From Malacoraja senta (lineage: Eukaryota): a stretch of DNA of 64,000 bases. Shown piece by piece: positions 106-58,100 of the stretch. Made by a program: the position numbers and the translations under genes. Every line of letters starts with the position of its first letter. Within the stretch, counting starts at the first letter, position 1. Below the pieces are notes generated by a model, which saw nothing but the letters and a program-made list of their open reading frames with translations, was not told the origin of the DNA and made no database searches. The stretch is taken from positions 5,828,001 to 5,892,000 of the forward strand of contig CM075988.1 in assembly GCA_038087875.1 (NCBI GenBank). Reading direction: 5' to 3'.

Positions 106-747
106 AGGGCCTGTCCCACTTGGGCCGTCACTTACGCGACAGGCCAGTAATGACGGTCACGTGACGGTCCCGCGAGTGTCGCACACATCATCATGCGTCC
201 GCACAGCCGTCTGGAGCGCGTGACGTCATTTGAAGATATAGACACAAAATGCAGGAATAATTCAGCGGGACCGGCAGCATCTCTGGAGAGAAGGAATGGA
301 TGATGTTTCGGGCCGAGACTCTTCTTCAGTCTGAAAGAAGGGTCTTGACCTGAAACGTCACCCATTGCTTCTCTCCAGAGATGCTGCCGGTCCCGCTGAG
401 TTACTCCTGCATTTTGTGTCTATCTTCAATTTTCTTGGCCCCGCTCTGGGAGTAGGAGTGGGGGCGGATCCGGATCCGCAACAGCCGTGAGCCCCAGGCC
501 GAGTTCGACGATCGTTTGCCTGCTTCTGCTGCTGTTGGAGGTGAGACGTGGCATCGCGCCAGGGTCTTGGGCCTGTCCCACTTTGGCCGACAGTTATGCG
601 ACGGTAGCGCGTGAAGATTTTGTGCAGGACGAAGTCCACACTCCTCCACACCACTCCACAGTCCTCCATGCGCCCGTCCCCGCGCTACTCACACGATAGC
701 AGGTCGCGTAAATGGCGCGCGAAAGACAGCCAAATGGGACAGGCCCT
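106..747. mobile_element. PIF/Harbinger-type MITE with nested palindromic repeat
   Basis: TIRs AGGGCCTGTCCCA / TGGGACAGGCCCT, TTA duplication at 103-105 and 748-750, CpG-rich interior. Confidence 0.75.
231..430. repeat. Palindromic Penelope-derived short element with back-to-back hammerhead-like cores
   Basis: About 100-bp arms in inverted orientation centred on cttcag-t-ctgaa; same family recurs throughout the window. Confidence 0.75.
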
Positions 748-2734
748 TTAGTCTCCCCTTGGCTTCTTTAATCTACTATAAAAGATATACCTAGTATACC
801 TAATCTTTCCACTTAACTAAATGTTAATCTTGTAAATTCATGTCTCCTTTTCTTGGAATTATTCAAGCAGTGATCAAACTGTTACGGAGTTCTAGCATAA
901 CTCCTATTCTATGCCTCGGCTAACAAAGGAATGCATTTCTAATGACATTTTAGCTTTGAGGATCTCTGCAGATACACTCCAAAGTCGACTGCATAGCTCC
1001 TGACCTCTCCACAAAATTGTAAAGATAGATGCTTTCTTCAGACGCCTCCCATAAAAACATTACATTTTCTGAGAATTGCCCAGGGTTAGCACTTTTGTTC
1101 AAAACTAGCTTTGTCCCCAACTTTCCCCACCTGCCTCCAAATTGTACTTAACTTACATTCTTACAGGTGCACATAATCAAGTGTCCCCAAGTGTCTTCTG
1201 TAAAATAAAGGTTACTATTTCCTCATAAGCCTTTAATTCTGCTTGAATGCCTTGGATGGTCCTATTCACTTGCTTTAACAAAGTAATGCAACATGTGGTT
1301 ATATAATATCTCTCTGCCGCACGTATTTTGTTAATAGTTAAATGTTGTAAGACAATGATCTGCAAGGGGAATTTGTCTGTCAGAGAAAAATATCTACAAT
1401 TTGCCTTGCACCTTATAACTGGGAGATAGAAGTAACTGAGGACTGAGTAATTGTATATTGAGTTTATTTAAAGTTTATTACATGGGCTTACGTTGCATGT
1501 ATTCTACAGTAGATATAGTAGGACAATTATGAAGCAACTAGGTGTTATTGACAGCTTTTATGGTCATTTCCTTTTGCAAAAAAAAAAAATGGGTAGCAAA
1601 AAGAAAAAAATGAATAGGTGGCAAATTTCCACAGGGAATAGGAGATAGAGTGGGCCATTCAGACGCAGGCCTGCTCCAGCATTAGTCAAGATCACGGCTG
1701 ATCTTCTACCTCAACACTAATGCCCATGACTGCTTGGAGACTGTAGGATTGTGCATAATACAATCAATTATGAGATTAGTAAAGGGAAAGAACATTATGG
1801 GATGTTTAGGGCTAGAAAAGGTTAATAGTACACTATATATCTGCCAAAGCATGATAGGACACTGTATTTAACGACTAGCTCATCTGTACTATATTGAATT
1901 TGCTGGGAAAGTTATGTGTTTATCATCAATCAAGTGCGTTTCACTTTTATGGAGGAGAAATGGAGTAGGGATGCAAAATCTAAAGTGCTTTAGGTACCAA
2001 ATGAAATGCGAATGTGGGGGCAGCTTCAAATTGACCTTGGAAAATCTTGGCAATTTGACTTCAAAATGTACCACGGAATGAAATTTTACTTTTCCTTTTG
2101 TTGTACTCCATGTTCATGGGTTGTTTAACTTTCCTTTTTCCTACGCAGAGGCTTTGTTGCTAACTCTGTGTGCCCCATTTCTAAATGTGCTATTTTCTGC
2201 ATTGATTGTATAATGTTGCCACATATTAAATTCACCGACTGACCTTCGCTGACAAAAATCACTCCAATCGTCTGCAGAGTTACCAATGAGGTATTAAACA
2301 AAACTTTGATAGTTTACCCAACTTTCCTGACCTTTGTAGCGAGCTTGTTTTTTAATCTGAACCAAAGAGCTAATAGCACATCCTGGATTAACCGAGTTAC
2401 AGTAACAAGCGATTTAATATGATCACAAGATTTTTGAACAATGATATGCTGACAGCCCAACAGCTGGGGTAGCAGCTGAGGTGCTACAATGAACTTCAAT
2501 GTCCAGGAGTGGGAGAGAGGAATTAATATTGTGGGTCTAAATACTAGAAGTAAATGTGCATCAATGTCTGACGAAAATAAATATTTGGATCAAACATCCC
2601 CAAAAACTCGAGGTTAACATTTTACATTTGAATAGCTATGGTCTTTGAGCCCATTGTTGCATTAAAACCTTATCCCAACAAGAGTTAATAATTAAAAAAA
2701 CAAAATGAATAGAAAATCAGTCTGCTCTTTCTTT

Positions 2735-2948
2735 AGACTTAGAACTTTAGAGATACAGCACGGAAACAGGCCCTTTGTCCCACCGATCAGCGATCACCCC
2801 GTACACTAGCCAGGGCACCTGGAGAAAGCTCATGCAGCCACAGGGAGAAAGTACAAACTCCATACAGACAGCATCTGTAGTCAGGATCGAACCCGAGTCT
2901 CTGGCGCATTAAGACAGCAACTCTTCCGCTGCGTCACTGTGCTGCCCC
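2735..2948 (-). mobile_element. tRNA-derived SINE copy (internally deleted)
   Basis: Reverse B box aggatcgaaccc and same tail. Confidence 0.75.
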
Positions 2949-4056
2949 AAAGACTGCTGACTTCAATAGGCTTTAAACAACTGCTTTAAGCCTATTAACT
3001 TTAGACTTAACCAACTAGCTTTAACTAACTGCTAACATGCTTGTGAATGGACAGCAAGAGTGAGAGCTGTCCAAATATGATAAAACAAACTTCAAATAAC
3101 TGATCTGCATGAGCAAGGGAGAAGGAGCATTAGCTGAATTTCTCATCTCAGGCTGAGCTTCCAGTACTTTGCCAACACTCTAGTGGAATTATCAAACGGA
3201 AAGGCTGAAAGCAGTCAGGGATTGCTCACTTGTTTCAAGTGAAAAGCAGCCATCCCTCAAGTACTTTGTTGACAATACATCGCCCAGTGCCAAACGCTAT
3301 TTATGCAGCATGATGTAAACGGTAAAAAAGGTGGGACCCAAGTGTTCCTGGGCTTACTATTTGTGGTAAGGATGTGGTAAGACGACCACAACTCGTATGG
3401 ATGCATGATATTTGTGTCTCAGATGTTAGTAGTATTTCCGTGGCTGTACCTCACAACAGTTGGGTGCTGAGTAAGACACCACATAAATTCTATAGGGAGC
3501 TGCAAAATCAAACTGGTTAGATATCTGCTGCATATAGGCTTAACAGGCTGGATGGAAGGAGGATGCTTCCCCTGACCGAGGAACCAAGGGACAAATTTCA
3601 GAATAAGGAGGAGGCTATTTAAGGAGTTTAAAGTAGATGGCAGGATGTGTTTTCATAAAAACACAGAAGATGGTGGCTGCCAGCTGTGGTGATGAGGACA
3701 GATATGAGAGTGGTGTTGAAGAGGCTTTTAGAAAGGCACATGGATATGGAGGGAATGGAGGGATATGCATCACGAGCAGACAGAGAGATTAGTTGAACCG
3801 TGCATCATGTTAGGCATAGACATTGTGGGACAAAGGGCCTGTTCCTGTGCTGTACTTCTACCTGGTCTATTTAAGACTACTAGATGAAATGTCTTCATGC
3901 AGAAGGTGATGAACCCTTGGAATTCTGTGGGGGCTCAGTCATTGCTGGAAAGTGGCACTGAAGTAGAAATTCAGGCATAAAGAATGACAAAGCAGGTTTG
4001 AAGGGCCAAATGGCCGACTCTTGCTGTAACTTATGCTCTTATTTATATGTTCTTAC

Positions 4057-4158
4057 CCACCACCTCTCCATGACACGGATACACGCCCATTGAGATGGCC
4101 TTCCTACGAAATGCATTCAGAAGGAGCCACGGATCGAACCAGCCTTCGTTTTCCAAAC
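4057..4158 (-). CDS. FOXRED1: FOXRED1 exon (102 nt)
   Basis: tag|GTTTGGAA...GTGG|gtaaga; contains ENEGWFDPW. Confidence 0.92.
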
Positions 4159-7100
4159 CTACACCACAGAGCACAAGAAGATGAGCAACGTGCAGCCAAG
4201 CTCAGATTAGTTTGCACATTCATTTCACTGCAGCGCCATTTCCATCTGTATTGCATTGGATAACAACCTAGACTCCAGCATCGCAAGAGCAGGATTTCAG
4301 CCCTAGTCCAGATGCAATTATAAAGTACAGATCCAAAACTAACTATTCCAAATGCACAACAGATGCACTTCAAACTGTGATTGAACAAAATCAGCATTGG
4401 GAATTGGGAGGCAAGTGTGTATTATTTCTTTCTTCTATCACTGGTGAGGAATGTGAAGAACCTCCCCGCTGCTTCTGGGATAATTTCCAACCTTAAAATC
4501 CACATGCCCAATAGTTTACCAATATGACAAACTGGTAGTAATGGATTTAAGATTTATCCAAGGTTGATGACATGCATGACAGCAAATTGTATAATGCCTT
4601 GAATTAAAAAAAAAAAAGTCAACCTTACTTTAAAATTCTCCAGTCTTCCTCCATTTTTCTCTAATTTCATTTTCTACAATTCTGAGCTATCTATCTCCTC
4701 ATCATTCCCAAATCGAAATCACCCTTGGGAGTCTTGCCTTCAGCTCTGACATGTTGTCATTTACTTATCTGCCTCTTTCATTAGGCATGTCTTACAGCCA
4801 AATGGTAAGGTTTGACCATGTCCCATAATGTATGTTTATGGGCTTTTGTGTCAAATTTGTTAATACCCCTGTGAAGATCCTCAGGCTGTTCGCCAACATT
4901 AAACCATTAAAATAAACTATTTATTGTGACATCTTGGCGTTTAACCCAGACCTCTCTGTTACGGTTCGACATTGATTCTCCTATCTGCCAGACACAGGTT
5001 TTGTTTTTCAGCAGACCCATCCTCATTCTTGGTTCTAAGACCACAGGTAAAATGTTCCCAGTCTCAACAGTAACATCATTCCAGAAATTCAATAGGTTGA
5101 CTACTGAACAGAATGGAAAAGCTATAGCTTTCAGTTCCTTCCATTAATCTTGGGGGATCCATTGCTGGGGTAGAATGGTTGGTGTTACATGCTGCATGTA
5201 GTTATTCTGGCACTTGAGTAGGGTTTGGTTATTTTAACTAAAGCTTAGTAAAATGCAATGATGTTTTACACACAAAGTTATAAACAGTCTTTAGACTTTA
5301 GAGATAGTGCGGAAACAGGCCCTTCGGCCCACTGAGTCCGTGCCGACTAGCGAACACGCTAGCACTATCCTACACACTAGGCACAATGAAAAAATGTTTC
5401 ACCAAAGCCAATTAACCTACAAATCTGTACGTCTCTGGAGTGTGGAAGGAAACCAGAGTACCCGGAGAAAACCACGTGGTCATAAGGAGAACATGCAAAC
5501 TCCGTATAGACAGTACCATAGTCAGAATTGAACCCGGGTCTCTGGAGCTCAAGGCAGCAACTCTACTGCTGCGCCAATGTGAAAAGTCATTTCTTAAAAA
5601 TAAATATAATTTTCATTAAATTGGTTACTCTCCATGGTGGACTCACCATATGAAGCTAAAGCTACACCTTCTGTGTTGATCCACGGGAATTTCCTCTGTA
5701 ACTGCTGTGGTGTTAAGAGGGTGACTGCTGCTCCCTCATCCCTGAAAGCAGTAAACGTTACATCAGCCCTATCTTCATATTTACCTCATCAGCTGATTCA
5801 TTTTCACTGAAATTGGAGACTCCCCCATAAATTTGAAGGTAATGCTGACATCTACATTGGGTGACAGTGGCACAACTGGTAAAGTTGCTGCCTCAGTGCC
5901 AGAGACCTCGTTTCTGTGTAAGGTTTGCACATTCTCTCTGTGACCATGTGGGTTTTCCTCTAGGTGCCCCGATTTCCTCCCACATCCCAAAGATTTGCGG
6001 GTTTGTAGGTTGATTGGCCTCTGTAAATTGCCCCAAGTGCGTAGGGATGAGAAAATGGGACAACAAAACTAGTGTGAATAGGTGATCGATGATAGGTGTG
6101 GAAACAGGCAGCACACACCCCACTCACCATAAATGGCAGTGCAGTGGAGTCTGTGAAAAGCACCAAGTTCCTGGGAGTACACATCACAGATGATCAGACA
6201 TGGTCCACCAACACCATCTCCCTAGTCAAGAAAGCACAGCAACGCCTCCACTTCCTTCGACGGATGAGGAGAGCCGACCTCCCCCCTTCTGCCCCTCACA
6301 ACTTTTTACAGGGGTGCCATTGAGAGCATTCTTACCAGCAGTCTCTCAGTCTGGTATGGCAGTTGCTCTGCTGCTGACCAGAAGGCCCTACAGAGAGTGG
6401 TGAGGACAGCGGAGAAGATCACTAGATCACCCCAACCAGCAATTCAAGACTTATACCCATCTCGCTGTCGCAAGAGAGCAACCAATATCATCAAAGACAC
6501 CACCCACCCAGCACACAAACTGTTCACCCTCCTACCATCCGGCAAGCGCTACCGCAGCATGCGGAGCAAAACCACAAGATTCAAAAATAGCTTTTTCCCT
6601 CAGGCCATCAGACTACTCAACACACTCAAGAAAATTCCATGAACATTACACAAAGACCAACTGACTGTCAAATTAACTTTAACCCAATGTCTGCAGTATG
6701 CTACTTGCACTTTTCTATATTGCACCTTTTATTAATGAATATTTTATATAATGTATATGTCCATTGTCTATTATTATTGGTATACTGTCTGTCTGTGTTA
6801 TAAATATTACTTGCACATTGGAGTATAGGGAAACGCAATTTCAATCCTCTGTGTAACTACTTGTTACATTATTTGAATTGACAATAAAGTTACTATTACT
6901 ATTACTATTTGGCAGGCAGAGGGGCCTGTTATCATGCTGCATCTCTAAATTAAACTCACCGCAATGAGGTCATATAAATATTATTAACAGTGGTAGTCTG
7001 AAGAAGGGTCAATAGACAATAGGTGCAGGAGTAGGCCATTCGACCCTTCGAGCCAACACAGCCATTCAATGTGATCATGGCTGATCATCCACATTCAGTA

Positions 7101-9098
7101 CCCCATTCCTGCCTTCTCCCCATATCCCCTGGCTCCACTATCTTTAAGAGCTCTATCTAACTCTCTCTTGAAAGCATCCAGAGAATCAGCCTCCACTTCC
7201 TTCTGAGGCAGGGAATTCCACAGATTCACAACTCTGGGTGAAAAGGTTTTTCCTCATCTCCGTTCTAAATGGCTACCCTTTATTCTTAAACCGTGGCCCC
7301 TGGTTTTGCACTCCCCCAACATCGAGAACATGTTTCCTGCCTCTAGCGTGTCCAACCCTGAATAATCTTATGTTTCAATAAGTTTCCCTCTCATCCTTTT
7401 AAATTCCAGTGTATAGAAGCCCAGTCTCTCCATTCTTTCAACATATGACAGTCCAGCCATCCCGGGAATTAACCTTGTGAATTTACGCTGCACTCCCTCA
7501 ATAGCAAGAACGTCCTTCCTCAAATTTGGAGACCAAAACTGCACACAATACTCCAGGTGTGGTCTTACCAGGGCCCAGTACAACTGCAGAAGGACCTCTT
7601 TGCTCCCATATTCAACTCCTCTTGTTATGAAGGTCAACATGCCATTAGCTTTCTTCACTGCTGTACCTACATGTTTACTTTCATTGACTGATGTACAAGG
7701 ACACCCAGATCTTGTTGTACTTCCCCCTTTTCCTAACTTGACACCATTCAGATAATAATCTTCCTTCCTGTTCTTGCCACCAAAGTGGATAACGTCACAT
7801 TTATCCACATAAACTGCATCTGCCATGCATCTTCCCACTCATCCAACCAGTCCAAGTCACCCAGCATCCTCCTCACTGTTCACCACTGCCACCCAGCTTT
7901 GTGTCATCTGCAAATTTGGTAATGTTACTTTTAATCCCTTCATCTAAATCATTAATGTATATTGTAAATAGCTGTGGTCCCAGCACAGAGCCTTGCGGTA
8001 CCCCACTAGTCACTGCACGCCATTCTGAAAGGGACCCGTTAATCCCTACTCTTTGTTTCCTGTCTGCCAACCAATTATATATCCATGTCAGTACCCTACC
8101 CCCCTATACCATGTGTTCTAATTTTGCCCACTACTCCCCTCTGGGGGACTTTATCAATGGCTTTCTGAAAGTCTAGGTACACTACATCCACTGCTCTCCC
8201 TTGTCCATTTTCCTAGTTACATCCTCAAGAAATTCCAGAAGATTAGTCGAGCATGATTTCCCCTTCATAAATCCATGCTGACTCGGACCGATCCTGTTAC
8301 TGCTATCCAAATGTGCGATACTTCATCTTTTATAATTGACGCCAGCATCTTTCCCACCACCGATGTCAGGCTAACTGGTCTATAATTCCCCGTTTTCTCT
8401 TTCCCTCCTTTCTTAAAAAGTGGGATAACATTAGCTACCCTCCAACCCACAGGAACTGATCCTGAGTCTATAGAACATTGGAAATGATCACCAACGCGTC
8501 CACAATTTCTAGAGCTACCTCCTTAAGTATACTGGGATGCAGACCATCAGGCCCTGGGGATTTATCAGCCTTCAGTCCCATCAGTCTACCCAACACCATT
8601 TCTTGCCTAATGTGAATTTCGGGTCCTAATCCGAAACGTCACCTATCCATGTCTCCCAGAAGATGGAGATCTGATCACCTTCCAACCAGCTGGACGGACT
8701 CATCTTGAGTGTTACCTTGTGTGGACACAAATTAGGCTTAAAGTTGAAGGTGTGGGAGATGCTCAGCAAATCAGACAGCATAAGTAGAGAGAGAAAAAAA
8801 ACAAAATTCATATTTTGAGTCAATTCCCTTCTATTAGAAGACTGCAAAACTCAGTTCTAATGCAAGCCCATCAACCCGAAACATTAACCGGAGGCAAAAT
8901 CCTTAAAGGTAACAGTTATTGCTTATTCCAACATTAGTGAAACCCTGGTCTGGCAGGATTTAGCTTTCAAATATCTCACCGCTGAATACGGTAATTTTCT
9001 GCCATAATATCACTCTGCTCCTTCCCAGCTAAGAGTAGATATCCCGATGGATTGAACTGAACATCCACGGGGTCCTCATTCACCACATTCAGATGTTC
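4057..9098 (-). CDS. FOXRED1: FAD-dependent oxidoreductase domain-containing protein 1 (complex I assembly factor), partial: 3 internal exons
   Basis: Minus-strand exons 9098-8980, 5741-5647 and 4158-4057 have AG/GT boundaries with compatible phases. They translate to [105 protein letters not shown], matching recalled vertebrate FOXRED1. The divergent position relative to SRPRA is as in human. Not in the ORF track. Confidence 0.92.
5290..5580 (-). mobile_element. tRNA-derived SINE copy
   Basis: Same family as 39102. Confidence 0.75.
5647..5741 (-). CDS. FOXRED1: FOXRED1 exon (95 nt)
   Basis: ttcag|GGATGAG...TATG|gtgagt; contains [16 protein letters not shown]. Confidence 0.92.
5862..6096 (+). 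mobile_element. tRNA-derived SINE copy (interrupted by LINE)
   Basis: Same family; 3' end at about 6910-6955. Confidence 0.65.
6100..6909 (+). mobile_element. Rex1/Babar-type LINE 3' fragment inserted in a SINE
   Basis: [53 protein letters not shown]; (TACTAT)n tail; SINE resumes at about 6910. Confidence 0.75.
7011..8620 (-). mobile_element. CR1 LINE, 5'-truncated
   Basis: [37 protein letters not shown]; short CTATTGT-type tail; GGGTC duplication at 7006-10 and 8621-25. Confidence 0.92.
8980..9098 (-). CDS. FOXRED1: FOXRED1 exon (119 nt)
   Basis: cag|GAACATCTG...CAGCG|gtgaga; contains [10 protein letters not shown]. Confidence 0.9.
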
Positions 9099-10635: not shown

Positions 10636-12162
10636 GTATAGTGAGTGGTTGAGTGTAAAGGAACTGCAGATATTGAAATTGTGAGCAAAACACAGAGTGC
10701 TGGAGGAACTCAGCTGATCAGGCCACCTCGATGGAGAAAATGGACAGACGATGTTTTGGTGTTGGATTGGGTTCTTCAGACTGGAGAAGGCCCCAAACAT
10801 CGCCTGTCCATTTCCTCCATAGATGTTGCCTAGCCTGTTGAGTTCTGCCAGCACTTTTTTTCATCGTGTTCTAAGATATAGTGAGTGCTTCTTCCATTTT
10901 TTTACTTGCAGCAACAAGTCTTTGCTCAGATTGCCTGCAACTTGTTTTTCTTCAAGTACCTCAGAATTCTTGTCTTTAGGGGAATTTTGTTTTTATCCTG
11001 TTGTCTCCAAAGACCCGGTGGGGTATTGATGCTACAGGTGCAGAACCATTCCCTGGTGAAGCATGTTTTTGAAGTGGTTTTTTTCAGCTGTTGCTATTTT
11101 AATGATTTAGTTGAACTGCTGACATGATAGCATGAAGGAAGAACAAGCTTGCCTTTCATGTCATCAAGGCATCTTGCAGCAAGCGTACTAGCCAATTTAC
11201 ATGCAGCCATGTACCACACAAGCTTTGGTTTTGATGGTTGTAGTGGAAATTGAATTATTTAAAAGCTGATAAAATGTGTAGGAAGGAACTGCAGATGCTG
11301 GCTTATACTGAAGATAGATGCAAAATGCTGGAGTAATTCAGCAGGTAAAGCAGCATTTCTAAAAGAGAAAAATAGGTGATGTTTCTGCTAGTATGAGGAA
11401 GGGTTCTGACCTGAAACATCACCTATTCTTCATTTAAAGGCTGACTTTGTGAAAATGCAACAAACAGCGAGTTAATTAAATCAATAAGCAATGTTTACCC
11501 ATTTGATACAGAACATAACATTAGAATGTTATATTTGGGTGTTGACAAGATTTCTACTGTCACTAGGTTTCTATCCATAGCCATAGGCAGCGAGTAACAA
11601 TGAATTACTTTGCTGCAGGGATCACATCCAGCTGACAACCCTTGTTACATTTTCTAATAGGAAGCTGGCCATCAATTAGAAACAAGAGTTCTTATGTTTT
11701 ATATCAAATTACATTACACTTACTATTCAAAATATAAAACAAAAAAAATTACTGAGATGTAATTTTGATTTGGAAAAAATAACTTTCATGCATTCATTTG
11801 CATCTCAAGCTTGCAATTCACCTTCATACAATTTCCAAAATAGCATTTTGTAGTGGACTTAGTTTCCTAGGGTTGCCAGCTGAAGACAGTAATTGCTGAG
11901 GAGGTTTACATGGACAATTGCATTGGAAATTTGAAGATGGCTTTTATAATGGATAAAGTTCATGGGAATTAGTGCATCATATTTTAAGTACATTATCTGA
12001 CAGACAAGCAAATGGATTTGGAAATTAGTCATCACTAGCATTACTATTTGTGCACTATATTTCAAAGAAATTTCAAACATTCTCTGGGCATCCTTATGTT
12101 CTTGATTATCGTAAAAGTATAAATGTGTTTACGTTAAAAGATTGATTATTCCCCTTCTGCAG

Positions 12163-12246: not shown

Positions 12247-15200
12247 GTGAGTATTTAGCAGATCAAATATAATTCATTAAATGTATTATTAAATTGGGTT
12301 CAAAGGTGGACATTCTGGGATATTTGTAGCTATTTTCACCAGGGACTTGTCTGAAGTTGTGTTTGATTTGGAGAAAATCTGCATACATAGAGAATCCATT
12401 GAAGTGCAGAAAGAAGTTGGCTCCATTGGAGTAAAATAGAATGTGTGTTTTAAACCCTAAAAATAGGCACTGGCTAGTCCAATTATCGAACGATGAAGGA
12501 TTATTATCTCGACTGAGGTTTCTCTGCTGCTGTCAATGTTGAATAAAAGTCCACCGAATGTGGAATTGTAGCAGAATGATCAGTATTCTTTATAAAGGTA
12601 GCTTCTAGTTTATTGAAACATCTCTGTTCTAATATTTGTGACAATGTGGGCTCCGCTGTATAATGCCAGACGATTTCCGTCACTGGAATCTGTGAAAGTA
12701 TTGAGTTTGTCATTTGGGAGCCGAGAGGCATAAGTGATAGAGATTGACATTTAAGATTACCAGATTGGAATTATCTCACTTTTTATAGGGCAGTCGGAAA
12801 CGGGAATGTAGATGGGAGGAGGAGGGTGGAGTTGCTCTGAAGGGTCAGACTTTCAAATAAACCGTAAGGCCTTGGGGAGTGTTGTAGAGCAAAATGACAA
12901 GGCGTGCAAGCACATTTGCTCCCTGAAAGTGGCATTCTCTGGGCATCCTTATGCTCTTGATTATCGTAAAAATATAAATGTGTTTAAGTTAAAGGATTGA
13001 TTATTCCCCTTCTGCAGGAGAGAGGAGGAAACTTGTGACTTCATATCAGGGTGGTGAAGGTGGCTTTTGGCACATCGCCCTTTATCAGTGAAGGGGGTTT
13101 AGTCTGGATGTTGGGATGTTATTGTGTAGTTGTACAAAACATTGGTGAGGGGGCACTTGGAGTGTTGTGTTCATTTTGGTCACCCTGCTTGGATAGATGC
13201 CATTAAACTGAAAAGAGTGCACATAAATTTACGAGGATTTTACCAGCACTCGAGGGACTGTGTTATGGGAAGAGGTCCGAGCAGATGAGGACTTTATTCT
13301 TTGGTGTCTGGAAGACTGGGTAATTTTATTAAGGCGTATAAAGTCACGAGCGGCGTAGATGGGGTGAATGCACATAGTATTTATCCCAGCATTGGGGGAT
13401 GAAGAACTAAAGGGTAAGGGTAAAGGTTTAAAAGGAACCCGAGAGGCAGCTTTTCACACCAGGTGGAATGTATATGGTGGGAACTGCCAGAGGAAGTGGT
13501 TGGGCAAGTATATTTATGTTTTCTTTCTGTCTGAAGAAGGGTCTCGACCCAAAACGTCGCCCATTCATTCCTTCTCTCCTTCTCTTCTGTCCAGCTGAGT
13601 TACTCCAGCATTTTGTGTCTACCTTATGTTTTTGTTTGTCTGACATGATGCAACTGTCTTTGAGTTTTGAGTGAAAGTATTTCATTTCATCCCAACGGGT
13701 TGGGCAGGCTAATAGAAGAGGCTGTTATTTGGGGGGTTTTCCTTGCACTGAGTAATGGCATGAAGTGCATGTGGTGTTCCAAATTGTTTGGAAATAGTGA
13801 AGAAGAGCCAGATTCCTTGGGTAGGTGGTGTGGGAAAACGTTTGAGGCACTTGCTATGCGGGAATGTTGATGGTTATAGTGAGGCTTAGTGAAAAGACGC
13901 ATTAACCCTTCCACACAGTGCAGCATCTCTACTCCATGCTGGATAAGACTTTGCATTGTATTGGCTGTCTGATTTAAATATGTGGTTATGCTCGCAACAC
14001 AAGTCATTGTAATTATCTGTGTAAATTAAGCTGCTGTCAAGAAGTAAATATTTGCATATAGTGTCATCAGGGAAAAGCCTGTTGGAAGAAGAGATGAAGG
14101 CATAAATCCACAACTGTTGGAATTCAGTAGTATAATAACTTATCAAAGAGCACATTAATATCAATACTTTCACTAGGCTTACTTGTTAGATTTAAAACAT
14201 GCGCGAGGCTATTGTATTCAGTGAATCAAATCTATGTAATGTTAATCCCGTCTATACTTTTTTGCTAATAGTTAAACTTTATGCCTGTTATTCTTGTTGC
14301 AGTATGTGTTGTTCCTACTTCTGCTAATGAGATGAATCTTAAATCTTAATGACTAAAGTAGTTCACAGATTTATAGATGTGTGATTATAAATGTCAGAAT
14401 AAGACAGTTCATTTAAGGCAATTTTCTTTTTATCCGACAGGTGGGCTACCAAAAAATCCTGACGTTAACTTATGTGGACAAGTTTATTGATGATATCCAC
14501 ATGTTATTTCGGGATAAATATAGAAACCAGTTACAGCACAGAGGAGTGCTGGGCCTCCTTAGTGGTTCCTTTGATTTTTTGGATGACTTCCAAGGTTTCC
14601 TGAAGTAAATGAATCAAACTATTTACCTTTTAGTAATTCCTTTTCTCCATGTAATGCCATTTATCACTTTCCAAAACAGCAGTTGACAGTTACAGTAATC
14701 GTACAAGAGAGCTGAAGTAAGGTTATGATAAGACATTGGTAAAGAGGATCATTATCTTGGAAACTTTCCAATCAGGTTTCAGGGCTCACCATAGCACAGA
14801 GTCTGCCTTGTTGAAGGTACACAATGACCTACTGCTCACCGTTGACTTCGGCGACTCTGCAATTCTTCTCCTTCTTGACCACAGCGCAGCATTTGATACT
14901 GTCGACCACACCATCCTAATTGACCGTCTCTGGTATGGGGTTGGTATTGATGGCACTACCCTGAGCTGGTTCATCTCCTACCTCAAAGGTGGGAGTTTCT
15001 CGACTGACATAGGCAACTCTTTCTCCTCCCCAGCTAATCTCTGCTGTGGGGTTCCACAAGGTTCCATCCTTGGCCCCATTCTCTTCTCCCTGTATATGCT
15101 CCCCTTAGGCCAAGTCATTGAAAGGCACGTCATTTCCTTCCATTGCTACGCAGACGATACACAACTCTATCTCCCCCTGAAGCCCCAAAACCAATCAAAT

Positions 15201-18200
15201 CTGTTTAACCTTACCCACTGCCTTGAGGATATAAAGTGTTGGATGGCCCAGAACTTCCTCCAACTAAACGAGAGTAAGTCTGAGGTCATCCTTCTCGGCC
15301 CCTCGGACTCAATCAAAATGATAACAGGCAGCCTTGGAAGCCTTACCCCACTACTCAAACCTCACATCAAAAACCTTGGCGTGATATTTGACTCAGCACT
15401 GAAATTTGACAAACAAGTCAATGACGTGGTAAAAGCTAGCTTCTTTCAGCTTCGGACGATAGCTAAAATAAAACAATTCCTCCAGTTTGATGACCTCGAA
15501 AAGATCATCCACATATTCATCTCCTCCCGCCTAGATTACTGCAACTCCCTTTACACTGGCATCAGCCAATCTTCCCTGTCCCGCCTGCAACTGGTCCAAA
15601 ACGCCGCAGCGGGACTCCTGACGGGCATCTGAAAAAGGGACCACATCACCCCGATCCTGGCCTCTCTCCACTGGCTCCCTGTGCGGTTCCGTATAAACTT
15701 CAAGATCCTCCTCCATGTCTACAAAGCCCTCAATGGGCTTGCCCTCACCTACATAAAAAGTCTTCTCACCCACCACTCCACCTCCAGGCCCCTCAGATCG
15801 GCCGACTTGGGGTTGCTGAATATCCCGCGGTCTAGGCATAAGCTCAGGGGCGACCGCGCCTTTGCGGTTGCAGCCCCTAGACTGTGGAGCAGCATCCCCT
15901 TTCCCATCAGAACTGCCCCCTCCATCGACTCTTTTAAGTCAAGACTAAAGACTTATATATACTCCCAAGCCTTTCCTGACGTCCTCTGAGTGAGGGCTAC
16001 ATGTATATATGTATGTAGTTTGTTTGTTTATATTATTCTTATAACAAATGTAAAGCACTTTGGCCAATGAGAGTTGTTTTTTAAATGTGCTATATAAATA
16101 AATGTGACTTGACTTGACTTGATTATGCTATATTGATTCCAGAGGGACATACAAATACGCAACTGAAGAATTCACCTTTCTGTAATAGGAGATAGAGTAG
16201 AGTATCAGCAGCCGATCGGTTTCATAGAGAAGAGATATTTTAAATGGAGATAAAGGAACTGCTGATATTGAAAATGTGAGCAAAACACAAAGTGCTGGAG
16301 GAACTCAGCTGATCAGGCCACCTCGATGGAGAAAATGGACAGAGGATGTTTCGGTGTTGGATTGGGTTCTTCAGACTGGAGAAGGCCCCAAACATCGCCT
16401 GTCCATTTCCTCCATAGATGTTGCCTAGCCTGTTGAGTTCTGCCAGCACTTTTTTTCATCAAAATCTCTTAGCCCTTCGGTTACAACGTTGAAAGCTAGG
16501 TTGAGGAGAGACTTATGGAAATTGAAGTGGAAGCTGGGGCTATGTTTCAAGATACTCTCTGGGTTCAAGCAGGCGGATTTATTGCTTAAAACCTTCTAGC
16601 CTTCGACTCATTTTTTAAACAAATGAGTGTTTAAGCAGATATCCATTTTTCTAATTGAACAAGCTAGGATGAATTATGGGGTTCTCTAACTTGTTTAAGA
16701 TTGAACGTTCAAAAATCATTTTTTCTTCTATCTATTTCTTAGACAGTGGATCTTTAATTTGAAAGATTTTGGGTACGATCTTCCTCTAACCTTCCTAAGA
16801 GAATGCAGTCTGTATGGATGAGATGGGGTACAAACTAACAAGAGATTGCTGGTTTGCCCCCACTTAACCCCTGCAGGTTGCAGGTTGGAATCAGTCAGAA
16901 TTTCCACTCCTGTTTGTTCTTCTAAATCTAATGCTGGAAAGCAAGTGTGCTAACCACAACAAAGGAAGTAACTCACCACCTTGCTTTCTATTGTGTCTCA
17001 TACAGAACACAGAACAATACACCGCAAAAATAGGCCCTTTGTCCCACAGTGTCTGTGCCGAACATGATGCCAATACCATCACTTATCTATCTACACATAA
17101 CACATATCCCTTCATTCCCTGCATATACATATGCCTGTCCTTGAGTCTTTTAAATACCACTAATGTATTTACTTCAACCACCACTCCCGGCAGCGTGTTC
17201 TAGGTACTCACGACCCTCTGTTTAAAAAAGAAAACTTGCTCCACGCATCTCCTTTAAACTTTGCATCCCCTCACCTTAAGCTAGTATATGATTTTTTTTT
17301 CATCCTGGGAAAAAGATTCTGGCTGTCTACCCTGGGGTACTGGGACCCCAGGAATGCTATCACATTCTAAAAGTCGGCCAAATTAAACACTAGAAATTTA
17401 ATGGCAGTTTTGCTTTTGATAATTCTGTTTAGCCTAATGTGTCCTTTTTTGCTGGTCTTTAGGGATGCTGAGGAACGGACCAGAGGAAAAGCACCATCTG
17501 TCATGAAAACATTTAAACAATCTGATAAATCAAGGAAAACTGTGAAATCTATGATAGAAATCCGAGGTGAAAAAGGGAAGGAGAACAAGAAAATCAAGAA
17601 AGAAGGTAAGTAATAGTTCATTGGCAGAGGCTCACAAGTTTGACATGGAAATGGCTGAAGTGCACTAATGGGAGGGGAAAGCATTTTTATAAAGTAACAG
17701 GGAGCTAGAAGCATAATCTACAAGTGTAACCCTGAATTTATAGTTGACCGTCTATCCCATTCTAATCTTTATTTCTTTATGCTTCTGCGTGGTTACATTC
17801 AAGCCTAATGTAAACTCAAAGAGCAACAGCTCATCTTGACATCTCTTGACAGGTTGACAACCCTTGAGACTTAACGATAAATCCAGCAAGTTCACATAAT
17901 CAGCCTTTCCAGCTTGCACCACAATTCACTAAATCTGTCGAAACTTCATCTGAAGCATGAACTCTGTTCTTCCTTCAGTTTCCAGCATCTACAGGGTTTT
18001 GCTTCTCCAGTTTGTATCTCAGTTCCAGCATTACTTTTTAATACTTCCCCGCTTCTGCCTAGGTTAATCTTTTCAGTGACATTTTCACCAGGCAAATCAT
18101 CTGTAATTACCATCCTCTTCTGGCTGACACCACCACTTGCTGTCTCTTGACCTCCCAACCTGTCATGGACATGCCCTTTTTTTTCAGCCTCGCCTTTTTC

Positions 18201-30710: not shown

Positions 30711-30783
30711 GCTGCTATCATTGTTGGCTGTGGTCATCTGTTGTGTTCAGTTGCAAGGTGTAAATGGAATGGCTGCTTTATAA

Positions 30784-38331: not shown

Positions 38332-47496
<9,165 letters not shown>

Positions 47497-48349
47497 CCAG
47501 CTTCTGCGATGAGAAACTCCAGTTAGGGAGCTGATGTTTCGCAATAAAGAATGACGATGTAGGGACAGGGGCTTAACTTCTTTGAAATTCAATAAATTTA
47601 AATTGTAGCAAATGGGTGCATTTTAAAACACACACTGAATGCTACAGCACTGCTTCTCCAATACCCGTTTGTTGATCCATCATAAAATATTTCCAATTGA
47701 CTTCTACATTTAACAGAAAACACACTTTGTTAGAAAAAGGAGTTGGCATAGAAGGTTGCCTAAAGTTCAAACCTCCTAAACTGTTGATGAAAATGGTTGG
47801 AAAGAAATCTGCTACACCATAATGGTAAATGTGTTTAAAATATAAACCAAAAATGTTTCAGTTAAGAATTTTGACAGAATTTTAAAACAGAAAAGCAACA
47901 TATTTTTAGTGAATGTATTAGGAGGATACTGAAGGTGATATTTTGGCAGTGATTTAACTCAGCACATCATTAACTATCTAGCGGGCACCCATCATGGCAA
48001 TAAAAAGTAGTCATCAGCAGAACATCTAGTGGTTTAGTAGTTCCCAATTAAAATTGTATTACAACCAATTTAGTCCACGTAATAAAAGTACATTCACAAA
48101 TTCATCAATCACTTTTATCAGATTCATGTTATGGAACAAGTGTTATAGCAGAACTATCTGTACTATAATATAGCAACAGCTGCCTGCAAAATTCAGTTCT
48201 GTTGAATTCTGAAGCAGAGGACACTGTACTACTATATTGTGTTCAGCATTATCAAATATTAATTCAAGAAGGGTCTCAACCCGACCCATTCCTTCTCTCC
48301 AGAGATGCTGCCTGTCCCACGGAGTTACTCCAGCTTTGTGTCTGTCCAG

Positions 48350-48635: not shown

Positions 48636-50059
48636 GCTGTAAGCAATAAGATTTCCCAGACCAAGTAAAAAAAGTCACAACAAATTCGCTCATCTAACAA
48701 AATAAATGTGTTGAGTTTTCTCTATGGTGGGAGATAAACTTCCAATGTGTTACAGATAAGCAGAAGTATTATGAATTATGATTGCTGGGGGTGCATGTGA
48801 TAATTTTCTAGGAGTATTTTTGCACTGTGGACACAACAGATGAGTAAAATAAATCTCACACATCAAATAAAAGCAGCACGAACAACATCTACACTCTGGC
48901 ACCATATCAGGCAATCTGCAAACTGGGTTAAAAACTTGTGAACTTGTTATTTTTCAATCTACCTCCAAGATTAATGGTTCTTTTCTAAATTTACACTACC
49001 CATTGTACTTCCCACATATCCTCGTTTATTTTACGTGTACTTAGCCACTTAATTTGCAAGTGGTGAATGAATACAAATTCCTTTTTCACGTTACTGTGGC
49101 TTCATTGCACTTGTCCACTATACCCATAGGGTAGGAATAATTTCTGTATCTTTACAAGCTAGGCAATGCAACCATTAATATTATTACAAATGAACCAATA
49201 ATTTCCATTGTCGTGATTTTTTTAAACCTAAACCTAATCCTTAATATCAGAAAAACACAAGAGACTACAGATGCTGGAATCTTAAGCAAAAATGAAATCT
49301 GCATCTATGGCGGCAGATGGATGGATAATATTTTGGTTTGAGATCCTTCTTCAGACTAAGCATGCAAAGTCTGAAGGGTCCCAACCCCAAATGTTGCCTG
49401 TCCATCTCCCTCCACAGATGCTACCCGACCTGCTGAGTGTCTCCAACAGTTTGTTTTTTCTCAGGACCTGAAATCAGCATACGATAATTAGTTCAATAAT
49501 ACACTGCAGTTTAGGAAACTACCAGTGTATTTCAACATCAAAAATTGTTATTCTCTTTTCCTCGTAATACAGGAGATATTTTATTTTCAACAAGTGTATT
49601 CTTCCATTAGCCAATTTTTCACCAAACAAAGTGTCTACACTCACCTCCACGCCAACAATAATGGATTTAAATCCCAAACTGGGTGCTGCAGTCCAACATG
49701 CATCTTATTTACACTGTCAGGCTCTGATCCTCTCTCTTCCTCTTTGCTGAACCAGCTCAGGTCAGGAATCAAGCCCCCACCACTTCTCCAGATTTCTCTA
49801 CCCCCCCCCCCCCCAACCTACCACCATGTCTGAAACATTGTGTGGGTTTATTTTCTCCACAGACCCTGCCCAACCTGGTGAGTTCCTCCAGCACTGTGGT
49901 TTGCTCAAGATTCTAACATCTGCAATTGTTTATGTCTAGTTTGGGGTACGTGGCAGTGAGCCAAACGTTCTCCCCGTCTTCAGGGCAAAGCCATTTATTT
50001 CACTTCTTGTATTCAGTGCAACTCCAGACCTTTGTGGGTCCAGAACCTGGTGGGAACCA

Positions 50060-51172: not shown

Positions 51173-51789
51173 TCCAGGCGCCGCGAGCGTGCGCAGTAGG
51201 CTGCATGGCGGCCGCGCAGGCTCAGAAAGACCAGAGAAGCGCAACCGTTCAACTCAAAACTCACGCTGTCAAACTCAAAGAGCCAACGAAATGTGTAGGA
51301 AGGAGCTGCAGATGCTGGTTTAAACCGAAGATAGACACAAAATGCTGGAGTAACTCAGCGGGGTCAAGCAGCTCTCTGGAGAGAAGGTATGGGTGACGTT
51401 TCGGGTCGACCCCAAGATTAGCAAATACACCCACCAAAAAAATGTTCTCCCCATCTGCAGTCGATGTAAATTACCCATTCAAATTTCTGAACACCTATGT
51501 TAACTAGAAACTATGTTAACACAATAGGATTGTCTGCATGAAGCCTGGGTTTCACAGCTGTCAGGTTCATCTGAGAAATTCACACTATTACCTGATCAAC
51601 TGATTAAAAATATAGCAATGGGGAAATTAAATAATATGGTGGATTATATTATTAGGTTACTGGTGTGGGGGCAGGCAATCCTGCAACTCTGGAAACCTGA
51701 AAAGGTGACCCACTTTTTGGAGCACTGAGATGGGGTCTCCAGATCTATTCATAGTCGGAGAGTGCTCATGTGGAAGGACTGCTCCAGGA

Positions 51790-52600: not shown

Positions 52601-54342
52601 ATGTTTGCTGCAATTGCAGGTTAGATTTTATTAACTTGTACTTAAGGATACTCAAGTTCCAGTGGGAAGTAACAATATAAATACACCACTATTTATCAAA
52701 GCACTTCTGTTCTGTGCACAAAAATGGATGACATTACATATCTCCATATTATATTCCATATCTTTGCCCACCAAGCTTGTCTAGATTTCCTTGAAGCCTC
52801 TCCACATTCTCCATCTACTCATATTCCATCTAATTTTGTTTCATCACCAAACTTGAAATATGACATTAGGTGGAAACCAATTAACATAGATTATAAACCT
52901 CGAGACTGTTAGCCTCAAAGACCAGTTTGTTCCCACTGTTTCCTTTTTGACAGTTGATTGTCCCTCAACAATGGGACCATGAACAGACAGGGAATAGATG
53001 GTTACAGATCACTTGCAGTGTGGGAGTGGCTCGATTGACATCTTGGTTAACACGGACATAGTGGACCAAAGGGCCTGTTCTACGCGTTTCGAAACGATCA
53101 CCAAGAATGGCCCTGCGATGAGGAACTCCCATTACATGCATAGATTAGCACTGTCTTTTCACGGTACCGCAGTAAACATGACAATTAACTAAATAAACTA
53201 AACTACTTTGGAGGATTCAGAGGAGATTTAATAGAAACAAATAAAATGACAAATGTTTAGAGTGGACAGAGACAGATTTTCACTGGTGCATTGAGTCATT
53301 AACTGGAGATCACAGATATAAAACAAAGTGATTTCAGAATGAAGAAACAAAATTTCCCTTCACACATCCTACTTCCTGTAGGTGTGGTGGGAGGCAGGTT
53401 ACACTGTGGCTTTCAAGCAGGAAATAGATAACATATATAGTGGATACAAAAAGTTAAAAGACTACAGAAAAAGAGGCTCAGCTGCTGGATCAGAGAGGGA
53501 TGCCACCTGACCCACTGAGTTACTCCTGTATTTTGTGTCTTTCCTTGGTAAACCAGCACCGGCAGCTCCCTGTTTCCACCAACTAAAGAGTTACAGTGAC
53601 AGAGAGGCGACGTGGACACAGTGGGCCAAATAGCCTCATTTTGTGCAGCCACCATCCACAAACCGTGGGCTCCATTTGTTTGGTGGAGTTCACATCCAAT
53701 GGGACCGTGTGATTTCAGCCACAGTACCTTTCAGGGGTCTACAGTGGCCTCTTCAGACCGGGCAGAGGTGGGTGAAGCCACATCTCTGGGATTCACTGAC
53801 CACCAGCAACGGGACAGACTGAAGATAGACACAAAATGTTGGAGTAACTCAGCAGGACAGGCAGCATCTCTGGGGAGAAGGAATGGGTGACATTTCAGGT
53901 CAAGACCCTTCTTCAGATTGAGAGTCAGGGGAGAGGGAAATTAGAGATATGGAAGGGTACAAAGAGCATGTAAGGTGTGAAGAGGGCAGATGACAGCACC
54001 TCTGACAGGGCAGCACATCCTTAGAACAGCATGAAAGCATGTCCTGTTGAGTTCCACTGTCTGTATAACTCGTTATCACCTGTGCCACAGCCACCTTTCC
54101 ATGATTATCGGTGCTTTTGGCATATCTTCCATTCATTTGTGCAAAGGACCGTTTATACCTCCCGTTCCCCTGCCTCTCAGTCCGAGGAAGGGTCTCGACC
54201 CGAAACATCAGCCATCCCATGTTCTCTGGCGATGCTGCCTAACCCGCTGAGTTACTCCAGCACTTTGCGTCTGTCCCCAGTAAATGGAGTCGGTGTCAGA
54301 TATCACATTGGCCATCAATGAAGCCTCACCGTGTAACGTTAC

Positions 54343-54980: not shown

Positions 54981-55109
54981 ATGGAGTTGGAGGCCGAGGG
55001 CGCCGCCTGCGCGGGATGTGCGCTAACCTGGTGCCTGACGGCCGTGGTGTTTGGCGCCGCGCTGCTGGTGCCTTGGAGACTGGGTCTGGTGCACCGGCTC
55101 CGGTACCGG
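54981..55109 (+). CDS. ILVBL: ILVBL first coding exon
   Basis: Kozak gccATGG; MELEAEG...[12 protein letters not shown]|gtaagt, phase 0. Confidence 0.82.
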
Positions 55110-58100
55110 GTAAGTGGAAGGGGACGGCGGGGGACACACAGCTGGGATCCTGCCCCCGGGGCTCGGCCCCTGCCCTCAGGGTGGCGGACCGGGACGGACA
55201 CAAAGCGCTGGCGCTGCTCAGTGGGACAGGTGTCAGGGGTTATGGGGAGAAGGCAGGACAATGGGGTTAGGAGGGAGAGATAGATCAGCCATGATTGAGT
55301 GGCGGAGTAGACTTGATGGGCCGAATGGCCTTATCTCTGGAGGGAATTGCCAGGCGAAGTTTCTGGTAATTTTAGATACAGACAAAATGCTGGAGTAACT
55401 CAGTGGGACAGGCAGCGTTATAACAATAACTCATCCTACATTTCCGTATCAGCGTCTACTTTGATCTGTCGTTTTCACACCTATCCCAACCACCTATATC
55501 TCCCTCTCCCCTGACTTTCAGTCTGAAGAAGGGTCTCGATCCGAAACGTCACCCGTTCCTTCTCTCCAGAGATGTTGCCTGACCGGCTGAGTTACTCCAG
55601 CATTTTGTGCCTATCCATTCTTCAGACTGATGGAGTAGAGGGGAAGAAAGCTAGAAAGGAGATGAAAGGGGTGGGACAGAGCTTAACAAGTGGACACAAA
55701 TGCTGGAGTAACTCAGCGGGTCAGGCAACATGTTCAGAAGTGTCCCGATCCGAAATGTCATCCATTCCTTCTCTCCAGAGATGCTACCTGTCCTGCTGAG
55801 TTACTCCAGCATTTTGTATCTATCTTCGGTGTAAACCAGCATCTGTAGTTCCTTCCTACATCAGTGACAAGTGGATACGGGTGAGGGAGATTTGAACATG
55901 GTGGAAGAGATGGAGAGCAGCAGGAATCACAAAGGGGTGGCAGTGAGGGTCTGGCCGCTGCCCTGCCCTAGGACAGGGTGAAGTGGGTTGTGCTGCCCCT
56001 GAGTCCTGCCTCTGCCTTGTGGAGGTTTGCTGGCTCCTGTCCAAGGATGAGTGGGTGGACTGGGTCCTGTGCCCTTGAGCCAGGAATCAGAGAGGCCACA
56101 TTGGCCACAAAGTGCTAGAAGAAACTGGTGCATTCCTGAAATACCCTGGTGGTCAGGGAATGGGTATATTGAAGGCACAAGGAACTGCAGTGGCTGGAAT
56201 CTTGAACAAAACACATTGTGCTGGAAGAACTTAGCAGTTCAGGCAACATCTGTGGAGGGGAAGGACAGGCAGCATCATGTGTCAGGACCCTTCAGTCTGA
56301 AGAAGGTTTCCGACCGAAAACATCACCTGTCCATTCCCTTGACAGATGCTGCCTGACAGCTGAGTTCCTCTGACTTTTTATGTTATGGATATACTGAATC
56401 CTGTTCTGTGATTCATCAGGGAGATGGGGGAATCTGACTGATTTTGCGTTCATCAGGTTGGTGATCAAGGACATGGCAGTCCTGTGCATTTATGCATTCT
56501 GTTGTAAATGGAAAGTTAGTTAACTGTATGTTGAGAACTGAGGGTCTATTTTTGAGTCTTCTTCCCAACAACAATCAGGCTATTGACCACGACAAACACC
56601 TCCTAAACATCGAACTGTCTTAGTTGCACTAGGAACTTCATGCCTTTGGTTTGCTTTGCACCAATGTTATTTCTTTTAATTATTGAACTTTTTTACTTTT
56701 GTTTATTATGTTATCTATTGAATGCTGTGTTTACATACCTGTTGTGCTGGTGCAAGTAAGAATGTCATTGTTCTGTTTGGGTACATATGACAATTAAACA
56801 CCCTTGGCTCAAGGGACTGCAGATTTTGGAATCTGAAGAAGGGTCCCTTGCCCATTCCTTCCCCAGGATCTGCTGAGTTCCCCCAGCACTTTGTTTTGCT
56901 TGAGGCTCTGCTTTGTTTATTTAATATTTTCCTTTTGATTTTTTTCTTGGATAGGTGGAAAGTTCAAGCCCCAGACATGGTGGTGAGAGAGTTGCAGAGG
57001 TTTTGAAGGCTCATGGTGTGAAATACCTCTTTACTCTTGTTGGCGGACATATATCGCCTATTCTTGTGGCTTGTGAAAAGATTGGGATTCGTGTGGTCGA
57101 CACCCGACATGAGGCCACTGCTGTGTTTGCTGCTGATTCTGTGGCCAGACTGTCAGGTAGTTCTTCAAGATAAATGTGACTTGACTAACCTTAGCTTGCC
57201 CTTACAACCTTTTCATTAACTTCCTTTCCAAAGTCAAGATTGGTTGTACAAAAAGATAAAAATGTAAATATGCATTTGATCTTTATCGTAAACCACACTC
57301 CATTTTCCTTTTACAACCATTTCACTGTACAAAGGTACGTGTTCCCTCAAGAATGCAACATTAGCTGATGTAAAAGATTTTCTTTTGATCTACCCTATAT
57401 CCTCACGGTAGACTTAGACAAACTGATTAGGCACTTTTAATTGTGCTGTTGCAAGTAAGAATTTAATTGTTTTACCTTGGACATATGACAATAAAACACT
57501 CTTGACTCTATTTACATGGGTTTGTGGAAGTTTGGAACTTCTCCCCCAGGTTTGTTGAAATTACTCAAGAAGGCTAGGGTTTAGAAATGGGGAAGTACAG
57601 GTGCAATTGTACCGCGTGTTGTTGAGGCCACAACTGAAGTACGCTGCACAGTTTTGCCCCTTCTGCAAGAAAGGATATGCTGGCATTGCAATTCCGGGGA
57701 TGAGACATGCTATTGCAGGCAGCTAAAATAGTTGGATCCTTATTCTTTAGCGCTTTGAAAAATGTGGGATGATTTTACTTAGCATAAGATCCCAAGTGGG
57801 AGAGTTTCGAACGATGGGACATAATTACAAGATAAGAGGATTGTTATTTAGCACTGAGGTGCATAGGGATTTTTTCTTGCTAAAAAGTTGATTAATCTCT
57901 GAAATTCTCTCTCCTGGAGTGGAAATTAGATAATTGAAAGTATTGAAAGAGGAGATAGACCAATTTTTGAAAGATCAGGGAATAAAAGGCTATTGGAAGT
58001 GAAATGTAAATTAAAATGGTGGTTGTCAGATGATATGAAGATGCAAATGGATGTGTGATCAAAAATAAGTTTTCAAGCAGTCTGATTCAGTCACGGACAA

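Follow-up and report, generated by a model that had tools for sequence, protein, structure and literature searches.

Minimal hammerhead motifs in a short dispersed repeat of a skate locus, probably the terminal end of Neptune-type Penelope-like elements

We analyzed a 64,000-nt stretch of contig CM075988.1 of the skate Malacoraja senta (the window, numbered from its first letter). It carries a FOXRED1-type gene, SRPRA, FAM118B, and an ILVBL-type gene, with copies of a short dispersed repeat containing a hammerhead ribozyme motif in the introns of all four (Table 1). A first-pass annotation, made from the sequence alone, had described the repeat as a family derived from the ends of Penelope retroelements.

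All 17 motif positions that had been listed carry the motif or a decayed form of it, and the flank they were said to share is real. The sites therefore stand, but the list was an undercount, as a second-round profile search (E<0.05) recovers 45 segments that cover 4,369 nt (6.8% of the window), whereas the reversed window yields nothing better than an E value of 3.9. By our own count these segments represent about 30 insertions. With the first core base of the hammerhead (C3) numbered 0, the unit starts about 3 nt before the core and consists of the 28-nt hammerhead, a flank of about 65 nt, and an optional tail of about 35 to 40 nt. Its 3' ends form two clusters, near +85 to +102 and near +121 to +134. 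In 4/4 sequencing runs, the loose ends of contig matches are led by the end of the tail, with AT-rich sequence beyond it (loose ends at 55860).

The family is very abundant. On a 751-nt stretch spanning two copies, 190,695, 220,802, and 207,717 contigs from three organisms match with at least 85% likeness. Very rough copy bounds run from 15,000 to 36,000 up to 0.5 to 1.1 million, values that are ratios of peak to unique-flank contig depth and no true copy numbers. One of the runs, X21, is probably DNA. Contigs of organisms B and H cross from flanking DNA into the copies at 55523 and 55736, so these two inserts predate species with about 5% flank difference. No paper on this elasmobranch family was found in a literature search that lay outside Repbase and Dfam, which may hold it, and the words Penelope and SINE are absent from the main text available for two skate genome papers (PMC10115646 and PMC9605692). 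The core pattern was found in no viral contig, and of 164 metagenome candidates for relatives of P0011, an element discussed below, none was confirmed.

Table 1. Genes, Penelope remnants, and repeat copies in the window
Position	Strand	Feature
SRPRA, ~12.2 to 30.4 kb	+	Gene, identified by Pfam
FAM118B, ~38.5 kb to ATG exon near 47.5 kb	-	Gene, identified by PDB
ILVBL-type gene, from 54.98 kb	+	Gene, identified by Pfam
234..432		Head-to-head pair, cores 329- and 331+, in FOXRED1 intron; junction at palindrome TTCAG-T-CTGAA; defective ribozymes in both arms
6995..8660	+	Single copy in two halves, 6998-7010 and 8621-8660, split by insertion with LINE-like (long interspersed nuclear element) open reading frames (ORFs)
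8750..8832	-	Copy, old and decayed; E 0.03
10650..10868		Head-to-head pair with dead cores; target duplication of 24 nt, 3 mismatches
11270..11430		Head-to-head pair; 13-nt target duplication, 1 mismatch; minus arm has tail
13523..13633	+	Solo copy in SRPRA intron; G12A; target duplication of 9 nt, exact
16249..16466		Head-to-head pair, twin of 10650 pair; no target duplication
18247..18334	+	Old copy, flank only
28428..28680	+	Penelope-like reverse transcriptase (RT) thumb remnant, frameshifted; tblastn E 6e-11
28736..28816	+	Probable last endonuclease codons; weak, E 4.3; position-consistent
28817..29120	+	About 200 nt of 3' untranslated region (UTR) plus terminal end; hammerhead at 29016 (G12A); SRPRA intron
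31301..31477		Head-to-head pair, old, lying downstream of SRPRA
31738..31831	-	Copy with tail, decayed
36705..36938	+	Three pieces head-to-tail; competent core absent
40981..41198		Head-to-head pair, junction in helix II; 10-nt duplication, 1 mismatch; FAM118B intron
43471..43589	-	Core intact, with C3 at 43586 and a 4-bp helix I; FAM118B intron, sense
43881..43995	+	Copy beginning within helix II
45254..45403	-	Core intact, with C3 at 45400 and a 3-bp helix I; tail present; FAM118B intron, sense
46764..46941	+	Head-to-tail dimer (46767, 46802); 8-nt duplication; both ribozymes defective
48266..48347	+	Copy with deletion spanning GAAA/GUC
49257..49465		Old head-to-head pair; spacer palindromic
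49829..49945	+	Old partial copy
51271..51411	-	Young copy; start in helix II; full tail
53497..53587	+	Flank plus tail copy
53811..54286		Divergent copies 53916- and 54182+, carrying 50-65 nt or more of Penelope 3' UTR
55333..55690		Sense copy, intact; C3 at 55523; 2-bp helix I; 3' UTR of about 90 nt; ILVBL intron 1
55693..55872		Head-to-head pair with tail; 12-nt duplication, 1 mismatch
56174..56370		Old head-to-head pair, junction at palindrome
56796..56895		Decayed pair
59218..59320	+	Old divergent copy, beyond the range of the first-pass annotation

The motif reads as a minimal type I hammerhead, as had been proposed. The core CUGANGA / GAAA / UH is present in the consensus and in three fully intact copies, the extra base after A9 is an A in 27/27 copies, G10.1 is equally constant (27/27), and C or T stands at 11.1 in 31/33. 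Helix III is a loopless palindrome of the dimer type, ACGT in the consensus, of which the CG is retained in 12/34 copies. For helix II, earlier given as 5 bp with a 2-nt loop, we prefer 4 bp and a loop of 4 nt, because two nucleotides cannot close the longer helix. The full core, the 4-bp helix II, and the ACGT palindrome come together only at 43586 (-), 45400 (-), and 55523 (+), with a wobble in the palindrome of 53916 (-). Many other cores are dead, as the annotation itself had warned, for instance through an extra A within CUGANGA in the copy at 331 or through G12A at 13531, 29016, and 56297. One GAA of the core has been lost in four copies (31828, 46767, 49371, and 56295), a recurrent slippage that kills the ribozyme. 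Outside CpG positions, the core is conserved at 96% (257/268) and the flank at 81% (1732/2126), the twin pair at 16249-16466 being excluded from the conservation counts.

Helix I is the weak part of the structure, measuring 2 bp in its native context and no more than 3 bp in 12/13 copies, with values above 2 bp confined to the copies at 43586 (4 bp) and 45400 (3 bp). These two copies, both in sense orientation and 1,814 nt apart, flank one FAM118B coding exon (about 44206-44459). Predicted folding gives the hammerhead helices a pairing probability of at most 0.03 in all three intact copies. The core, rich in purines, has a tendency to pair with the flank, which is rich in pyrimidines. Whole units fold no better than their shuffles (z from -0.6 to 1.2 in 4/4), and none of the 36 Rfam hits at E<=5 is to a hammerhead.

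The derivation from Penelope ends is borne out by an RT remnant upstream of one copy and on the same strand, whose thumb lies 340 to 590 nt before the hammerhead and whose named top hits are sharks and a ray. The remnant accompanies 1 of the about 30 insertions, and four other copies have at least 26 nt of similar 3' UTR. Within it, a 45-nt segment (28681-28725) that is 91% identical to part of the neighboring SRPRA exon (27893-27937) bridges an internal deletion, which suggests a template switch onto a host transcript or a repair-templated insertion.

Further evidence comes from relatives of the element, which carry an RT and, as seen in P0011, P0018, and P0032, a GIY-YIG endonuclease. A CX2-5CxxC linker, assigned to the Neptune and Nematis clades (PMC8557442), is present in 79/80 long relatives and in P0011, while it is deleted in the window copy; the placement with Neptune as opposed to Nematis is provisional. 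A pattern scan of metagenomes recovered at least 121 loci with the same core. Among the matches listed, 36/121 have a hit to Penelope-like elements (PLEs), the core lies 76 to 580 nt past the endonuclease end in 29/121, and helix I has at least 4 bp in 77/123, compared with 17 when its partners are shuffled. Because helix I covaries and the core follows the PLE endonuclease end, we regard the core as a real, selected ribozyme motif in this clade. The flank of the skate family, sought in the same 121 listed loci, gave no match there beyond 3 weak hits in the core region or upstream. Its sequence identity to the end behind the RT remnant identifies the repeat as a pseudo-long terminal repeat (pLTR), and altogether we consider it very likely that these pLTR ends belong to elasmobranch Penelope-like retroelements of the Neptune type.

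The structure of the insertions points in the same direction. At least nine are head-to-head pairs with their 3' ends outward, several having their junction at a TTCAG-T-CTGAA palindrome, which shares bases with the core, and others having it within helix II; such pairs cannot form a cis dimer. Head-to-head pairs with the same core, joined at an upstream palindrome, also occur in metagenome loci L021, L024, and L067 (about 1490-1600). Target duplications of 8 to 24 nt (score of at least 8) flank 6/20 units, four of them pairs, in comparison to 3/296 random boundaries. Inverted pLTRs, junction palindromes, a tail on one end, and duplications of 8 to 10 bp have been described for related elements (PMC3846280 and PMC8557442), and in an anole element two classes of 3' end correspond to two internal RT start sites, with AT-rich targets and an uncleaved RNA template (PMC11167929). 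By analogy with this work on anole and rotifer elements, we infer internal initiation, an uncleaved template, and palindrome-driven joining. The RT/endonuclease would nick AT-rich DNA, and reverse transcription would start about 92 or about 132 nt past the first core base of the hammerhead, giving copies without or with the tail. Uncleaved RNA would be copied straight through the ribozyme, usually stopping at or inside the hammerhead, and an inverted second arm would often be added and joined at the palindrome, leaving most inserts as just one or two pLTR ends. The hammerhead would be kept by selection in the source elements, with the inserted copies decaying neutrally.

The distribution of 5' ends bears directly on this scheme. 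Among 45 ends, 19 fall at -10 to 0, another 15 lie within the ribozyme, 5 are farther upstream, 6 are past +35, and none lies at +21 to +35, around the cut site. The annotation had overlooked this pile-up just before the core, and likewise the head-to-head pairs and the tail. In the 13 listed copies that reach C3 and have neither 3' UTR nor a palindromic join, the native upstream match is exactly 3 nt in 7 and 2 nt in 4; one of the latter, 13531, may start at -8. Among the matches listed, the top low-agreement 5' loose end in run X2 is exactly at -3 (446 contigs), and in X3 and X17 the top loose end is at -5, partly mixed with 3' UTR variants. A depth drop upstream of the core (about 250-fold in X2) was not used, because the copy diverges at 55501 and summed contig depth does not equal copy number.

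Several observations weigh against the Penelope pLTR interpretation. The window contains no full-length element, and 13/20 units have no duplication near their ends. The RT/GIY-YIG remnant whose 3' end the annotation had placed at 29016 stands in its RT part (thumb, E 6e-11) and is uncertain in its GIY-YIG part, as the motif itself is deleted and the C-terminal endonuclease piece is weak (E 4.3). Ordinary random 5' truncation fails to explain the pile-up of ends, since the block from -25 to -6 is kept in 73/91 relatives from other animals and in only 3/24 window copies by score (5 by eye), groups that differ in age and ascertainment. All three intact copies are in sense orientation in introns. 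Last, when gaps are counted and subfamily columns dropped, core conservation falls to 91% (257/282) and that of the flank rises to 85% (1363/1610). The core is still the better conserved of the two (p=0.003), the annotation having held that its reading would fail were this otherwise. The difference could reflect selection on successive source elements, which would explain it and does not prove it.

For the pile-up of 5' ends, a stop of reverse transcription at the palindrome or at a hairpin is the cause we lean towards, although its chance falls short of even. A more tentative possibility is that the ends mark a transcription start combined with internal RT initiation, so that the short copies would not be random truncations. 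RT would then initiate internally at the 5' pLTR of the autonomous mRNA and copy 95 to 135 nt up to the cap, and two such cDNAs would anneal at their terminal palindrome to form the head-to-head pairs. The TCAGTC before the core fits the initiator consensus, with the A at -3 as +1, a consensus that is matched 1.7 times per kb per strand. However, these same bases also form the junction palindrome, and in Drosophila virilis the transcription start precedes helix I by about 120 nt (an exon of 46 nt followed by an intron of 75 nt; PMC2377424 with PMC4209133). If the transcription start were the cause, an autonomous element would be mass-producing a hammerhead repeat resembling a short interspersed nuclear element (SINE) with no separate master, and its inserts, between tens of thousands and about a million in each genome, would mark where transcription begins as well as the two sites at which RT initiates. 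A separate short master is improbable as the source of the pile-up. We also considered a splice acceptor (pyrimidine tract and CAG|T, like the end of the D. virilis intron), which is disfavored to the point of being very improbable, because copies starting there have no common upstream exon and because the loose ends before 55520 show low agreement (0.32) and are AT-rich.

The alternative that survives best as an account of most copies is that they were made by one or more linear, SINE-like, non-autonomous masters derived from the pLTR, with their own 5' end at about -3 and mobilized in trans by the Penelope enzyme. The sharp pile-up, with its 19/45 ends at -10 to 0, and the very high copy number are what such masters would give. 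However, 15/45 ends lie in the ribozyme and 5/45 copies reach the Penelope 3' UTR, one of them up to the ORF remnant, so the series of ends is continuous; in addition, a search of the window found no tRNA gene. The pairs at 10656-10865 and 16251-16460 are ribozyme dead, 97.6% identical, and set in unrelated flanks, so that local copying, gene conversion, and remobilization of a dead unit are alternatives for this twin. It does show a ribozyme-dead unit copied whole, as a SINE-like master would predict, but gene conversion or local copying also accounts for it, and overall we judge these masters to be an unlikely source.

The annotation had gone on to call the family retrozyme-like, that is, a non-LTR retrozyme (one without long terminal repeats) whose tandem units are transcribed, self-cleaved as dimers, circularized, and reinserted. 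Animal elements of this kind have been described (PMC7229834 and the preprint bioRxiv 2026.07.22.740005, which includes one chondrichthyan) and are likewise short, non-coding, and pLTR-related, with a type I hammerhead. Two same-strand tandems (36705 and 46764) are present in the window, and the sequencing runs contain head-to-tail joints of the tail end to -5, -3, -2, or +1, with up to 27 contigs per joint and run among the joints listed. These joints, however, use several junction positions and are a tiny share of the approximately 200,000 contigs per DNA run, and neither of the two window tandems has an intact ribozyme (0/2). Retrozymes consist of tandem units, each with a complete and mostly canonical hammerhead, and measure 150 to 450 bp (PMC7229834). 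In contrast, the skate unit is shorter (95 to 135 nt) and its ribozyme is minimal, with a native helix I of 2 bp compared to about 6 bp in canonical type I hammerheads. The window holds neither tandem arrays nor intact dimers of it, as none of the 21 rows reported by Tandem Repeats Finder is an array of the family unit. With no competent tandem unit, a 2-bp helix I, and 0/45 5' ends at the cut site, where no copy begins, the retrozyme label is not supported, and we regard this route as highly improbable.

The annotation had also inferred potential self-cleavage sites in the introns of host genes, and the decay of the copies does not support meaningful ones. G12, which lies in a CpG, is mutated in 12/35 copies and the G of the loop CpG in 8/30 (p=0.59). 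The C11.1/G12 dinucleotide (n=35) is CG in 11, TG in 10, CA in 7, TA in 1, and otherwise in 6, so the tolerated TG and the lethal CA are about equally frequent (p=0.63). G12 thus decays like a neutral CpG. Sense-strand depletion, suggested as a check, is not seen in introns, with 15 sense and 16 antisense segments among 31, a count of low power that omits 10 segments outside the gene spans used and the 4 segments at 10650-11430, because their gene is unclear beside the assembly gap at 9345-9544. Given the neutral decay of G12 and this balance of orientations, cleavage of host RNA is unlikely, and the inserted copies, with their 2-bp helix I, very probably decay neutrally and do not cut it. That a few intact sense copies nevertheless cut host pre-mRNA, with 45400 and 43586 as a cis dimer being the best candidates, is the least probable reading of all: in each of them the core is full, the ACGT palindrome is kept, and helix I is one of the two longest of the window, and the 43586 core is intact in spite of a flank only 66% like the consensus, but in predicted folds other helices hide the core, minimal hammerheads show no activity as monomers and little as dimers (PMC4209133), the anole hammerhead requires the element protein (PMC11167929), 8/9 frog dimers were uncleaved and 1/9 active (bioRxiv 2026.07.22.740005), and by a rough estimate about one intact core among 20 old copies is within chance.

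Compared with published systems, the skate motif is a minimal hammerhead ribozyme (min-HHR) in layout, in a reduced form. It shares with the min-HHRs found in pLTRs of metazoan PLEs (Cervera and De la Pena 2014, PMC4209133) the core, the extra base between 9 and 10.1, the G10.1-C11.1 pair, the palindromic 15.2-16.2, and the position in the pLTR, and in both cases most copies are single, dispersed, and in truncated elements. The helices are shorter in the skate, with 2 bp in helix I, against 4 to 5 bp in Schistosoma families, and 4 bp in helix II, against 7 to 8. The copy number appears to be far above the 4,000 to 9,000 of coelacanth and Xenopus, although those figures count motifs that pass a descriptor (PMC4209133). 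The supplements of that study that were searched contain no shark or skate term.

The likeness to Neptune-clade, endonuclease-containing (EN+) PLEs (PMC8557442 and PMC3846280) is broad, covering an RT probably followed by an endonuclease, heavy 5' truncation, an inverted 5' copy with a junction palindrome, short target duplications, an optional tail of 30 to 40 nt that is often on one arm, and, in relatives, the linker motif. In contrast to them, nearly every insert here consists of nothing more than pLTR ends, and the palindrome at the junction shares bases with the core of the ribozyme. The Poseidon element of Anolis (PAc; PMC11167929) belongs to a different clade, and its ORF start in helix II has no counterpart shown here, but it also has two clusters of 3' ends, some 60 to 105 nt past the cut site, AT-rich targets, and inserts from uncleaved RNA. 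The skate family is ordinary in kind and unusual in its density and in where its pieces start. This very abundant elasmobranch repeat is possibly among the largest genomic collections of hammerhead motifs, and it provides a natural data set on the still poorly known Penelope mechanism, as maps of 5' and 3' ends from many junctions would bear directly on internal initiation, on the use of uncleaved RNA, and on the origin of inverted pLTRs. Relevance to host gene regulation is unlikely.

Some individual copies deserve comment beyond Table 1. In the copy split at 6998/8621, GGGTC is present on both sides of the break. The copy at 43471-43589 has an abutting 6-nt duplication that sets its start at -3. 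The unit at 55333-55690 carries an inverted arm (55370-55418) and is apparently nested inside the hammerhead of an older minus-strand copy.

Regarding the genes, the first one lies on the minus strand and reaches at least 9098. We take it to be FOXRED1 by gene order, a tentative name that PDB and Pfam searches did not confirm (Pfam DAO, E only 0.15). No first exon of FOXRED1 or SRPRA was found on either side of the 200-N gap at 9345-9544, which probably hides both, while the first exon of FAM118B is probably at 51.2 kb. A 100-nt stretch at an SRPRA exon start (12078-12177) recurs 855 nt downstream (12933-13032), possibly by local templated insertion. Directly past the SRPRA poly(A) region, a near-perfect inverted repeat of about 120 to 160 nt (30779-30936) is probably a miniature inverted-repeat transposable element, and it is followed at 33210-34823 by a Tc1/Sleeping Beauty-type transposon with 220-nt inverted repeats that are 94% identical and a frameshifted transposase. 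A second dispersed family, apparently SINE-like and about 270 to 300 nt long, has members 69 to 77% alike at 5290-5581, 18775-19060, 29862-30145, 39106-39415, 43592-43849, and 48357-48633. Last, upstream of the ILVBL-type gene, the CpG island contains an imperfect repeat with a period of about 100 nt (54530-54856).

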